From NCBI RefSeq assembly GCF_057098645.1, contig NZ_CM169472.1: a DNA stretch of 64,000 nt. One strand, 5' to 3'. Made by a program: the position numbers and the translations under genes. Of the stretch, positions 10,736-19,523 are shown piece after piece. The first letter of the stretch is position 1; every line of letters starts with the position of its first letter. A model generated the notes under the pieces. It ran no database searches. It was not told where the DNA came from and worked only from the letters and a program-made list of their open reading frames with translations.

Positions 10736-12226
10736 ATGAAATTGCACCATAGAATGCTCCGGCATTTTATCGCCGCAAGTGTCATTGTGCTGACATCTTC
10801 CTTCCTTATTTTTGAACTTGTCGCCAGCGACAGAGCAATGAGTGCCTATCTGCGCTATATCGTGCAGAAAGCAGACTCCTCCTTTCTTTATGATAAGTAT
10901 CAGAATCAGAGTATTGCCGCGCATGTGATGCGCGCTCTCGCTGCTGAGCAGTCGGAAGTGTCGCCAGAACAGCGGCGCGCCATCTGCGAGGCTTTTGAGT
11001 CTGCCAATAATACCCATGGCTTAAACCTGACTGCCCATAAATACCCGGGCTTACGCGGCACACTACAAACCGCATCCACTGACTGCGACACAATTGTGGA
11101 AGCTGCAGCACTATTACCCGCTTTTGATCAGGCAGTGGAAGGCAACCGCCACCAGGATGATTACGGTTCAGGTCTTGGGATGGCCGAAGAGAAATTTCAC
11201 TATTATCTCGATCTCAATGACCGCTATGTCTATTTTTATGAGCCGGTTAATGTTGAATACTTTGCGATGAATAACTGGTCCTTCCTGCAGTCAGGAAGTA
11301 TTGGCATCGATCGCAAAGATATTGAAAAGGTATTTACCGGGCGTACCGTATTGTCGAGCATTTACCAGGATCAGCGTACTAAACAGAACGTGATGAGTTT
11401 GCTGACGCCGGTGTATGTTGCAGGGCAGCTAAAAGGGATTGTGCTGCTGGATATTAACAAAAACAATCTGCGGAATATCTTTTACACTCATGACCGCCCT
11501 CTCCTCTGGCGTTTTCTCAATGTCACGCTAACCGATACAGATTCGGGGCGCGACATTATCATCAACCAGAGCGAAGATAATCTGTTCCAGTATGTCAGTT
11601 ACGTCCATGACTTACCGGGCGGCATTCGTGTCTCGTTATCCATTGATATTCTTTACTTTATCACGTCTTCGTGGAAAAGCGTTCTGTTCTGGATTTTGAC
11701 GGCGTTAATTTTGCTGAATATGGTGCGGATGCACTTCCGCTTATACCAAAATGTGTCGCGAGAAAATATTAGTGATGCGATGACTGGACTGTATAATCGC
11801 AAAATTTTAACCCCTGAACTGGAGCAGCGGTTGCAGAAACTGGTGCAATCCGGTTCTTCGGTGATGTTTATTGCAATTGACATGGACAAGTTAAAGCTAA
11901 TAAATGACACCCTCGGTCATCAGGAAGGGGATTTAGCGATTACGTTGTTAGCTCAGGCGATTAAACAGTCGATTCGTAAAAGTGATTATGCCATCCGACT
12001 CGGTGGCGATGAATTCTGCATCATTCTTGTCGATTCGACGCCGCAAATTGCATCACAACTGCCTGAACGTATCGAAAAACGTCTGCAACATATCGCGCCG
12101 CAGAAAGAGATCGGCTTCTCTTCCGGTATTTACGCGATGAAAGAAAACGATACGTTACATGATGCGTATAAAGCTTCCGATGAGCGTTTATATGTCAATA
12201 AGCAGAACAAAAACAGCCGTTCATGA
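10736..12226 (+). CDS. yeaJ: Diguanylate cyclase YeaJ (intact GGDEF)
   Basis: Start ATG 10736 (MKLHHRML) after AAGGAG gives 496 aa; RLGGDEF present; ORF-track start 10556 is an upstream extension. Confidence 0.85.
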   Translation: MKLHHRMLRHFIAASVIVLTSSFLIFELVASDRAMSAYLRYIVQKADSSFLYDKYQNQSIAAHVMRALAAEQSEVSPEQRRAICEAFESANNTHGLNLTAHKYPGLRGTLQTASTDCDTIVEAAALLPAFDQAVEGNRHQDDYGSGLGMAEEKFHYYLDLNDRYVYFYEPVNVEYFAMNNWSFLQSGSIGIDRKDIEKVFTGRTVLSSIYQDQRTKQNVMSLLTPVYVAGQLKGIVLLDINKNNLRNIFYTHDRPLLWRFLNVTLTDTDSGRDIIINQSEDNLFQYVSYVHDLPGGIRVSLSIDILYFITSSWKSVLFWILTALILLNMVRMHFRLYQNVSRENISDAMTGLYNRKILTPELEQRLQKLVQSGSSVMFIAIDMDKLKLINDTLGHQEGDLAITLLAQAIKQSIRKSDYAIRLGGDEFCIILVDSTPQIASQLPERIEKRLQHIAPQKEIGFSSGIYAMKENDTLHDAYKASDERLYVNKQNKNSRS

Positions 12227-12268
12227 TAACCTTCTGTGGTTGTTTGCTTGTAATCTCAGGAGCATGAA

Positions 12269-12772
12269 ATGACTGAAATGGCTAAAGGAAGCGTGACGCA
12301 TCAGCGGTTAATCGCTTTATTATCACAAGAAGGTGCAGACTTCCGCGTCGTTACCCATGAAGCGGTAGGTAAATGTGAAGCGGTGTCAGAAATTCGTGGC
12401 ACCGCTTTAGGCCAGGGGGCTAAGGCACTGGTATGTAAAGTCAAAGGCAATGGCGTAAATCAACATGTTCTGGCGATCCTCGCTGCGGATCAACAGGCCG
12501 ATCTGAGCCAACTCGCCAGCCATATAGGCGGATTACGCGCTTCGTTGGCCAGCCCGGCGGAAGTCGATGAACTCACAGGCTGTGTCTTCGGCGCGATCCC
12601 CCCTTTCAGCTTCCATCCAAAACTCAAACTGGTTGCCGACCCCCTACTCTTCGAACGATTTGATGAAATCGCCTTCAATGCAGGCATGCTGGATAAATCC
12701 GTTATTTTGAAAACCGCGGATTATTTGCGCATTGCGCAACCAGAACTGATCAATTTCCGCCGCACTGCGTAA
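12269..12772 (+). CDS. yeaK: YbaK/ProX-family aminoacyl-tRNA deacylase YeaK
   Basis: 167-aa ORF recognised as YeaK. Confidence 0.85.
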   Translation: MTEMAKGSVTHQRLIALLSQEGADFRVVTHEAVGKCEAVSEIRGTALGQGAKALVCKVKGNGVNQHVLAILAADQQADLSQLASHIGGLRASLASPAEVDELTGCVFGAIPPFSFHPKLKLVADPLLFERFDEIAFNAGMLDKSVILKTADYLRIAQPELINFRRTA

Positions 12773-12877
12773 CTAGCCTGTCCGTTCAATAAGCAGAACG
12801 GACAAAACCAGCACAACAGCAATGGCAAAAAACGATGACGTGATAATCAGTGTCTCGACGAACATTTGATCGTTCAT
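12773..12877 (-). CDS. yoaI: Small membrane protein YoaI (34 aa)
   Basis: Hand translation of the minus strand gives [34 protein letters not shown]; below the ORF-track length cut-off. Confidence 0.75.
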
Positions 12878-13046
12878 AGCATGCCCCCGGGAGATAGCTG
12901 TTTTCACGTTATTGTTAGCGTGCACAAATGGCAGTTTGATGACAGTTCGCCTGATTTTTTATGCAAAAAACGTAAAGATTTTCTACTTCCTTCCTGCAGC
13001 AAGCGTAAAGTAAGCAGGCTTATTATTTTTTGGCAAGGAAACCACG

Positions 13047-13493
13047 ATGTTTGATGTCACTTTGCTGATCCTGCTCGGGTTAGCTGCGCTGGGCTTTATC
13101 AGTCATAACACCACTGTCGCCGTTTCAATTCTGGTGTTGATCATTGTCCGCGTCACACCGTTAAGCACCTTTTTCCCGTGGATTGAAAAACAGGGGCTAA
13201 GTATCGGGATAATCATTCTGACGATTGGCGTTATGGCCCCCATCGCCAGCGGGACGCTACCGCCCTCAACCTTGATTCACTCGTTTCTGAACTGGAAATC
13301 GCTGGTGGCAATTGCAGTAGGCGTTATTGTCTCCTGGCTGGGTGGGCGCGGCGTGACGTTAATGGGCAGCCAGCCGCAACTGGTTGCTGGGCTGCTGGTG
13401 GGCACTGTTTTAGGCGTAGCGCTGTTTCGCGGCGTACCGGTTGGCCCGCTTATTGCCGCGGGTCTGGTTTCGCTGATTGTGGGGAAACAGTAG
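13047..13493 (+). CDS. yeaL: UPF0756 inner-membrane protein YeaL
   Basis: 148-aa hydrophobic ORF recognised as YeaL. Confidence 0.85.
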
Positions 13494-17467: not shown

Positions 17468-17566
17468 ATGCGAATCGGTATTATTTTTCCGGTTGTAATC
17501 TTCATTACAGCGGTCGTATTTTTAGCATGGTTTTTTATTGGCGGCTATGCTGCCCCGGGAGCATAA
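17468..17566 (+). CDS. yoaK: Small membrane protein YoaK (32 aa)
   Basis: Hand translation gives MRIGIIFPVVIFITAVVFLAWFFIGGYAAPGA; absent from ORF track. Confidence 0.7.
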   Translation: MRIGIIFPVVIFITAVVFLAWFFIGGYAAPGA

Positions 17567-17568
17567 AG

Positions 17569-17643
17569 ATGAAAAAAACAACGATTATTATGATGGGTGT
17601 GGCGATTATTGTCGTACTCGGCACTGAGCTGGGATGGTGGTAA
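17569..17643 (+). CDS. yoaJ: Small membrane protein YoaJ (24 aa)
   Basis: Hand translation gives MKKTTIIMMGVAIIVVLGTELGWW; starts 2 nt after the yoaK stop. Confidence 0.7.
   Translation: MKKTTIIMMGVAIIVVLGTELGWW

Positions 17644-18815: not shown

Positions 18816-19523
<708 letters not shown>

Follow-up and report, generated by a model that had tools for sequence, protein, structure and literature searches.

The 34-codon Pho-regulon gene yoaI abuts yeaK tail to tail in Escherichia coli, with a hairpin at the mapped yeaK 3' end inside its coding sequence

The short open frame lying against the 3' end of yeaK on the opposite strand is, with high confidence, yoaI (b1788), a real annotated gene of the Pho regulon encoding a single-pass inner-membrane protein of 34 residues, and this is the best overall explanation of the frame. 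The window analysed is the whole stretch of 64,000 nucleotides, numbered from its first letter, and window coordinates equal MG1655 coordinates minus 1861305. The yoaI gene, its regulation by PhoB and its action on EnvZ are published, and the overlap of the yeaK and yoaI transcripts is already catalogued. The elements needed to follow the junction are these:

12773..12877, minus strand: yoaI CDS, 34 codons and a TAG stop; single-pass small inner-membrane protein (RefSeq WP_000999630.1)
12269..12772, plus strand: yeaK CDS; mischarged aminoacyl-tRNA deacylase, YbaK/ProX-type editing domain family (PF04073 tRNA_edit, 95.5 bits)
12770..12775, both strands: junction TAA/CTA; the yeaK TAA (12770-12772) abuts the yoaI stop, with a spacer of 0 nt and no shared base
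12884..12888, minus strand: GGGGG Shine-Dalgarno-like run, 6 nt upstream of the yoaI ATG
12927..12944, minus strand: Pho box TGTCATCAAACTGCCATT, a PhoB binding site; exact match to a published ChIP-seq site, 0 expected by chance
12911..12917, minus strand: putative -10 element TAACAAT, placed by its position 9 nt downstream of the Pho box and by the known architecture of PhoB promoters

The frame runs on the minus strand from the ATG at 12877 to a TAG that is the reverse complement of the CTA at 12773-12775. E. coli O145 str. RM9872 carries the region with 100% identity, RefSeq places yoaI there at exactly the same coordinates, and the layout of MG1655 is identical as well (yeaK 1873574-1874077, yoaI 1874078-1874182). 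Furthermore, the product matches the NCBIfam equivalog NF041475 ('small membrane protein YoaI') over positions 1-34 of 34 with 79.8 bits against a cut-off of 45 (E 1.1e-22). Its 34-aa sequence is identical to that of K-12 YoaI, which has the same neighbours, stop abutment and Pho box. Six of 271 nt in the region differ from K-12, none of them in the core stem of the hairpin described below, and those inside yoaI are synonymous; one adds or removes the outermost stem pair, and the loop of the hairpin holds two more. The yeaK-yoaI junction was found in 5410 of 5426 complete E. coli genomes, and the abutment never varies in 10 diverse E. coli sequences. The sequence-only reading had named the frame yoaI, a hydrophobic membrane protein of 34 aa, and the RefSeq annotation, NF041475 and the MG1655 layout all agree with it. 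Likewise, the sequence and the ORF coordinates bear out a 34-aa ORF placed tail to tail with stops abutting at 12772/12773. Its statement that yoaI 'overlaps the yeaK stop' is loosely worded for E. coli, where the two CDSs abut and share no base.

In the ORF list the same frame is given as a 50-aa version starting at GTG 12925. This start was dropped: it lies 2 nt downstream of the PhoB box and upstream of both the putative -10 and the inferred transcription start, and it is further ruled out by the shorter start that the orthologues keep. Hence 34 aa is the correct length. The orthologue starts are conserved as M/V-N/Y-D with a purine-rich Shine-Dalgarno sequence before them, and the majority of the orthologous loci listed have a purine run of this kind (GGGG, GAGG or GGAG) ahead of the start.

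The 18-mer TGTCATCAAACTGCCATT occurs once in the window, on the yoaI strand, and is the sequence given for a K-12 PhoB ChIP-seq site in Table 1 of Fitzgerald et al. (PMC10294691). It consists of two TGTCA-type repeats 11 bp apart that replace the -35 element, and from the putative -10 transcription would start at about 12901-12904. In that study PhoB occupancy and PhoB-dependent yoaI RNA were observed in K-12 by ChIP-seq, RNA-seq and RNAP ChIP, with a yoaI RNA value of 12,266 in wild type versus 28 in the phoB deletion. In addition, yoaI was induced by phosphate starvation on O157:H7 microarrays (PMC3978041). Pho boxes were scored by how many of the 10 specified bases of TGTCA-N6-TGTCA they match; in 35 of 40 loci a box that matches 9 or more of these lies 60-75 nt ahead of the start. 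A sigma-70 promoter scan of 12000-13400 found none, as expected because the yoaI promoter is without a -35 element, and such a scan is uninformative for a PhoB-dependent promoter.

Coding evidence was drawn from 80 Enterobacteriaceae yeaK loci, with pN/pS calculated across 38 yoaI orthologues. The ratio is 0.34 in the yoaI frame versus 0.54-2.66 in the other five frames, and the median dN/dS in the yoaI frame is 0.23. I12, F16 and S26 are invariant in 38 of 38 orthologues while V27 and E31 are each kept in 37 of 38; Ser26, Val27 and Glu31 are the same conserved residues named in the YoaI literature (Vellappan et al., bioRxiv 10.1101/2024.09.13.612970 / Sci Signal 2025). A search of a representative protein library with YoaI gave 23 matches at E<=1e-3, all of them short (24-94 aa). 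By this comparison yoaI is a protein-coding gene, and purifying selection is confined to its frame. The opposite reading, in which the frame is a chance opening in the yeaK-yeaL spacer from which no protein is made, can draw on the abundance of short ORFs, since the window holds 212 ATG ORFs of 30-60 aa and a short ORF by itself is not beyond chance, and on earlier tagging in rich medium and under several stresses that did not detect YoaI. Yet only 2 of those 212 are equally hydrophobic, namely yoaI and yoaK, each of them annotated as a gene for a small membrane protein; the 19-aa hydropathy window of YoaI peaks at 2.72 over residues 10-30. Against a chance frame stand also the frame-specific purifying selection over about a dozen genera, the conserved start and Shine-Dalgarno sequence, the existence of a curated NCBIfam equivalog, the Ribo-RET footprints and chromosomal SPA-tag western blot in low Mg2+, and the phenotypes of deletion and point mutants. 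The probability left to it is close to nil, and the published detection of the YoaI protein has already refuted it.

That detection comes from Vellappan et al. (bioRxiv 10.1101/2024.09.13.612970 / Sci Signal 2025), where the Ribo-RET start-site signal at yoaI rises ~12-fold in low Mg2+ and chromosomally encoded YoaI-SPA is seen in the membrane fraction by western blot, YoaI being undetectable in rich medium. Hence the check that the sequence-only reading had proposed for its frame, a ribosome footprint or a protein, has a positive outcome in published K-12 work (Ribo-RET, YoaI-SPA). The same authors report that a yoaI promoter reporter is PhoB-dependent, and that the rise of YoaI in low Mg2+ is PhoQ-independent and post-transcriptional, yoaI RNA being unchanged (bioRxiv 10.1101/2024.09.13.612970). 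They further observed two-hybrid binding of YoaI to EnvZ, which is abolished by E31A and E31Q, and EnvZ-dependent activation by YoaI of omrB, ompC and ompF reporters; the omrB reporter goes up >7-fold on YoaI overexpression and down 1.4-2-fold in a yoaI deletion (bioRxiv 10.1101/2024.09.13.612970). YoaI is thus a link between phosphate starvation and the EnvZ-OmpR system. From the literature, the sequence of events is as follows. Under phosphate limitation PhoB bound to the Pho box at 12927-12944 recruits RNA polymerase, and translation proceeds from the ATG at 12877, a start site seen by Ribo-RET, behind the GGGGG Shine-Dalgarno run. YoaI then enters the membrane, where, as the K-12 two-hybrid and reporter assays show, its conserved cytoplasmic Glu31 contacts EnvZ and raises EnvZ-OmpR output.

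Turning to the transcripts, the stops abut in E. coli and hence neither gene has intergenic room for a terminator. Indeed, a terminator consensus scan (hairpin and T-run) at the junction found none on either strand. All the expression, 3'-end and Rho data used for these transcripts are from K-12 MG1655, the window strain being of O145 type. ExcludonFinder counts yeaK-yoaI among its 165 convergent overlapping pairs, each detected in 50% or more of 58 MG1655 RNA-seq sets. The published ends and the hairpin beside them map onto the window as follows:

12805..12813, dominant 12809, plus strand: primary 3' terminus of yeaK mRNA (MG1655 1874110-1874118, dominant 1874114; TRS study PMC10687069)
12920, plus strand: peak of a Rho-dependent termination region (MG1655 1874225), antisense to yoaI (Adams et al. 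PMC7815308)
12779..12804, both strands: perfect 9-bp hairpin, arms 12779-12787 and 12796-12804, loop 12788-12795 (8 nt)

The yeaK 3' terminus carries adjusted p values of 6e-5, 1e-10 and 6e-7 in three libraries, with a hairpin of -15.4 kcal/mol just upstream and a maximum U-tract of 1 (PMC10687069). Given this end at 12809, the stable yeaK mRNA has a 37-nt 3' UTR wholly within yoaI. At the Rho region, upstream/downstream coverage changes from 73/36 to 120/166 when the Rho inhibitor bicyclomycin (BCM) is present; the Rho score is 2.8 (p 1e-5), for a position that is coarse since the comparison windows are of 800 nt (PMC7815308). The Term-seq tables of the same study record no 3' end for yoaI, yeaK or yeaL, and no yoaI 3' end was found reported in the literature examined. 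As a rut-like test, the plus-strand C/G ratio downstream of yeaK was followed; it peaks at 1.6 at 12750-12827, short of the 95th percentile of the window (1.75), and the C>G bias is not strong. Two candidate weak terminators for yoaI in the yeaK antisense strand (12720-12750 and 12668-12712) were rejected, as they fold no better than shuffled sequence.

Taken with the literature, these positions suggest that yeaK transcription would continue antisense into yoaI until Rho halts it near the yoaI promoter, a position known coarsely, and that the yeaK RNA would then be trimmed from its 3' end back to the hairpin formed by yoaI codons 25-33. Dar & Sorek 2018 (PMC6061677) describe Rho-dependent transcripts in general as trimmed back to a stem-loop. 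The yoaI transcripts, without a recognisable terminator, must presumably extend into the yeaK antisense strand. The two mRNAs thus share at least 37 nt of complementary sequence. This stable overlap takes in the 3' end of the yoaI ORF but stops short of its RBS, which only unterminated read-through would cover. The earlier supposition that so tight an arrangement offers little space for terminators, and that the two transcripts probably overlap, is in keeping with ExcludonFinder, the yeaK 3' end and the Rho region alike. Any regulatory effect of the overlap looks small.

The arms of the hairpin correspond to yoaI codons L25-S26-V27-L28 and E31-R32-T33, among them those for the residues that are reported to be invariant and essential for function. 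It folds with -14.4 kcal/mol on the plus strand (z -6.2) and -15.8 kcal/mol on the minus strand (z -4.7). The sequence that follows reads AAAACC (plus strand) or AGGCUAG (minus strand), a U-run in neither case, and hence the hairpin is not a canonical intrinsic terminator of either gene. Among the 10 E. coli sequences 16 sites vary, 3 of them in the loop, 1 at the outermost stem pair and 0 in the core stem. The stem is kept in E. albertii and in one further Escherichia sp. Four more Escherichia species representatives, of which two (L005, L007) carry the label E. coli, have a weakened stem or have lost it, and the hairpin is absent in other genera. It is thus conceivable that the hairpin is incidental to the codon choice of yoaI and that the yeaK end is an exonuclease stall point with no selected function, a reading to which we give somewhat less than even chances. 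The weakening or loss of the stem in the four Escherichia representatives and its absence in other genera fit with this. So does the fact that the arms encode the conserved S26, V27, E31 and R32, since protein constraint alone would then keep most stem bases, and the missing variation in the stem among the E. coli sequences carries little statistical weight and is not significant, with 0 variable sites vs about 1 expected. It fits less well that the stem requires particular synonymous codons (TCC, GTT, GAA, CGG and ACA), that its stability on the plus strand is far beyond that of shuffled sequence, that the three polymorphisms of the loop are all synonymous and the core stem carries none, and that the hairpin coincides exactly with the reproducibly mapped yeaK 3' terminus. 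Were the hairpin selected, the codons of the Glu31 region would also form the structure that sets the yeaK 3' end, and one sequence would serve two selected roles.

The overlap itself has been weighed as a function in two ways. It could be a functional excludon, in which convergent transcription and the RNA duplex would make yoaI and yeaK expression mutually antagonistic as a selected function: Pho-induced yoaI would lower YeaK, a tRNA-editing factor, and yeaK read-through would keep basal YoaI low. This we hold to be unlikely, with perhaps a minor share of the probability. The listing of the pair as convergent in at least 50% of the 58 RNA-seq sets speaks for it, as do the tight tail-to-tail layout conserved across genera and the undetectable YoaI of rich medium. 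Moreover, in Table S1 of PMC10294691, yeaK RNA stands at 389/413 in wild type (yoaI ~12,000) versus 709/655 in the phoB deletion (yoaI ~28); yeaK is thus 1.7-fold lower (log2 -0.8, q 0.0115) when yoaI is ~430-fold higher, which fits mild convergent interference. But the change in yeaK is only 1.7-fold and just short of the authors' threshold of q<0.01, and many unrelated genes (such as rpsH and rplB) shift equally in the phoB deletion, from whose global effects the yeaK change is not distinguishable. About half of the yeaK loci, furthermore, are without yoaI, and in Enterobacter a hairpin and T-run in the 20-nt spacer would insulate the genes, which argues that the overlap itself is not what is conserved.

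A module of the type I toxin-antitoxin kind, with a hydrophobic membrane peptide held down by overlapping antisense RNA, is far less credible still, and we regard it as very improbable. It shares with such modules a small hydrophobic peptide and an overlapping antisense transcript, and YoaI overexpression prolongs the lag phase (bioRxiv 10.1101/2024.09.13.612970). However, that growth effect is PhoQ-dependent and a lag rather than killing, and YoaI has a specific partner in EnvZ, a specific residue in E31 and a PhoB promoter of its own. A gene dedicated to an antisense sRNA is lacking, as neither a plus-strand sigma-70-like promoter in 12000-13400 nor an Rfam sRNA was found; the antisense RNA is the 3' UTR or read-through of yeaK, a gene of housekeeping type, and its stable overlap lies at the 3' end of the ORF instead of the RBS. 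Finally, yoaI is a single-copy gene of the core genome, unlike the repeated hok, ldr and ibs families. The preferred reading stays that of yoaI as a PhoB-controlled gene for a small membrane protein acting on EnvZ.

A yoaI orthologue lies directly tail to tail with yeaK in 39 of the 80 Enterobacteriaceae loci, from about a dozen genera. In these 39 loci the stop-to-stop spacing ranges from -4 to +30 nt, distributed as follows:

-4 nt: 8 loci; Salmonella arizonae and diarizonae, Trabulsiella, Yokenella, Pluralibacter and an Enterobacter sp.
0 nt: all Escherichia and Cedecea
1-14 nt: Citrobacter koseri and amalonaticus, Kosakonia and some Enterobacter-group loci
20-22 nt: Enterobacter; a GC hairpin and T-run across the yoaI stop, resembling a proper yeaK terminator
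30 nt: Lelliottia

A true overlap of the stops is thus limited to 8 of 40 related loci, which have TTAG or CTAG as a stop shared by the two strands. In the loci compared it is the tight tail-to-tail position that is conserved; neither the precise abutment nor the hairpin of E. coli is.

On its other side yoaI is followed by yeaL, and the spacer before yeaL holds a further element:

13047..13493, plus strand: yeaL CDS; DUF441 inner-membrane protein (PF04284), co-directional with yeaK
12993..13039, plus strand: degenerate hairpin and T-run just upstream of yeaL; CCTGC at 12993-97, GCAGG at 13014-18, T-run at 13020-13031

Thus yoaI and its promoter sit antisense between the co-directional yeaK and yeaL. 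The yeaK-yeaL spacer measures ~250-330 nt with yoaI versus 60-190 nt without it. No yoaI lies beside yeaK in the C. freundii group, Klebsiella, Raoultella, Kluyvera or Atlantibacter, and a search for a diverged yoaI in loci without a BLAST match that have long yeaK-yeaL spacers (Kluyvera and others) gave no hydrophobic small ORF. Because the spacer shrinks and a hydrophobic small ORF is absent in the genera lacking yoaI, the gene and its Pho promoter behave, by this comparison, as a presence/absence cassette of ~150-200 nt that is patchily conserved in Enterobacteriaceae. The element before yeaL contains two invariant motifs, GCGTAAAGT (13003-11) and TGGCAAGGA (13031-39). In other genera it forms a long stem between an A-run and a T-run, and in the alignment the stem pair of columns 18/46 reads UA in 11 sequences, CG in 9 and UG in 8; in E. 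coli it folds weakly (z +0.6). An Rfam search of this element returned no family. Within yeaL, a sub-threshold Rfam match to JUMPstart at 13253-13282 (20.9 bits vs a gathering value of 35, E 0.12) was taken as chance.

With regard to known systems, YoaI resembles MgrB (which acts on PhoQ), SafA/B1500 (EvgS to PhoQ) and MzrA (EnvZ) in being a short bitopic connector that is produced under one two-component system and binds the sensor kinase of another. It differs from MzrA in length (34 vs 127 aa), the two being unrelated in sequence, and from MgrB in that YoaI activates where MgrB inhibits; a further difference is that YoaI accumulates in low Mg2+ post-transcriptionally and PhoQ-independently. 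As for the convergent excludons of the ExcludonFinder core set, the pair shares with them overlapping transcription units, at a distance of 0 nt vs an excludon mean of 95 nt. It differs from them in that its reciprocal expression is weak and yoaI is just 105 nt long, so that yeaK read-through would cover the whole gene. The yeaK end also resembles the Rho-dependent trimmed transcripts of PMC6061677 in following a stable hairpin with no U-tract and with a bicyclomycin-sensitive region downstream. It differs from them in that the protective hairpin of yeaK lies inside an opposite-strand CDS; for yeaK, moreover, the trimming is what we infer.

The present analysis is a modest addition that joins existing data: the hairpin at the yeaK 3' end is built from yoaI codons 25-33, and the yoaI cassette and its tight convergent position are patchily conserved across Enterobacteriaceae. 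Even a gene of 34 codons, which ORF-length thresholds overlook, can have a genuine part in signalling, and where convergent genes abut, the 3'-end signal of one can lie within the CDS of the other. The locus could also help explain the post-transcriptional rise of YoaI in low Mg2+. The paper reporting that rise never mentions yeaK or antisense transcription (bioRxiv 10.1101/2024.09.13.612970), and the rise might stem from the antisense partner through yeaK read-through over the whole of yoaI including its RBS, up to the Rho stop near 12920, an idea that we consider a long shot. If so, altered yeaK transcription, Rho efficiency or duplex processing during Mg2+ limitation would free the yoaI mRNA for translation.

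In the E. coli strain A30 (NZ_CP092500.1), which was isolated from a horse, the yeaK-yoaI junction is interrupted by an insertion.

L084 (yeaK locus of A30), 1500-2585: IS5-family element in the 3' end of yoaI.

Homology of A30 to the window stops at 12793, within the loop of the hairpin that lies inside yoaI, and owing to the insertion yoaI and yeaK are found ~ 1 kb apart. What is left is a 31-codon yoaI whose C-terminus is altered. A30 is a natural variant in which the abutment of the two genes and the hairpin are both destroyed.

The yeaK-yoaI junction of the window is not the deepest convergent arrangement of this region, as yeaL (+) and nimR (-) share a coding overlap of 44 nt (13450-13493). 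This pair, as well as yeaO-yoaF further along the window, is also present in the published list of convergent excludons. Directly 5' of yeaL, the alignment of loci L003-L081 displays a further element.

12993-13039, + strand: element conserved across Enterobacteriaceae.

It is composed of an A-run, a stem (GCCTGYT...ARCAGGC) and a T-run, and the stem exhibits some covariation, with columns 18 and 46 pairing as UA in 11, CG in 9 and UG in 8 sequences. In the same alignment the unpaired GCGTAnAGT is invariant, as is TGGCAAGGA ahead of the start codon. The E. coli version is degenerate, with a stem of 5 bp, and its fold is not better than those of shuffled sequences; no matching family was found in Rfam. 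The element resembles a bidirectional terminator or attenuator which would overlap a possible -10 element.

Downstream of dgcP, the window carries a second pair of tiny genes, both annotated in RefSeq.

17468-17566, + strand: yoaK, 32 aa, MRIGIIFPVVIFITAVVFLAWFFIGGYAAPGA.
17569-17643, + strand: yoaJ, 24 aa.

Among the ORFs of 30-60 aa in the window, yoaK is the only other one that reaches the hydrophobicity of YoaI. Separately, the annotation of RM9872, a 100% identical strain, lists a pseudogene here.

18816-19455, - strand: leuE, frameshifted.

One contig labelled 'Chryseobacterium sp. 18061' (L033, CACSKA010000011.1) displays an Enterobacter-like yeaK-yoaI locus with a YeaK identity of 79%, most likely reflecting a contaminated or mislabelled public assembly.

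In Enterobacter itself (L036, L038, L041, L042, L053, L064 and further loci of this genus), a GC-rich hairpin, GGCTGAC...GTCAGCC, is observed in the stretch of 20-22 nt behind the yeaK stop and includes the yoaI stop codon. The T-run behind the hairpin corresponds, on the opposite strand, to the conserved Leu-Glu-Arg/Lys codons of yoaI. Hairpin and T-run together resemble a yeaK terminator; hence, the conserved C-terminal codons of yoaI supply the U-tract of this putative terminator.
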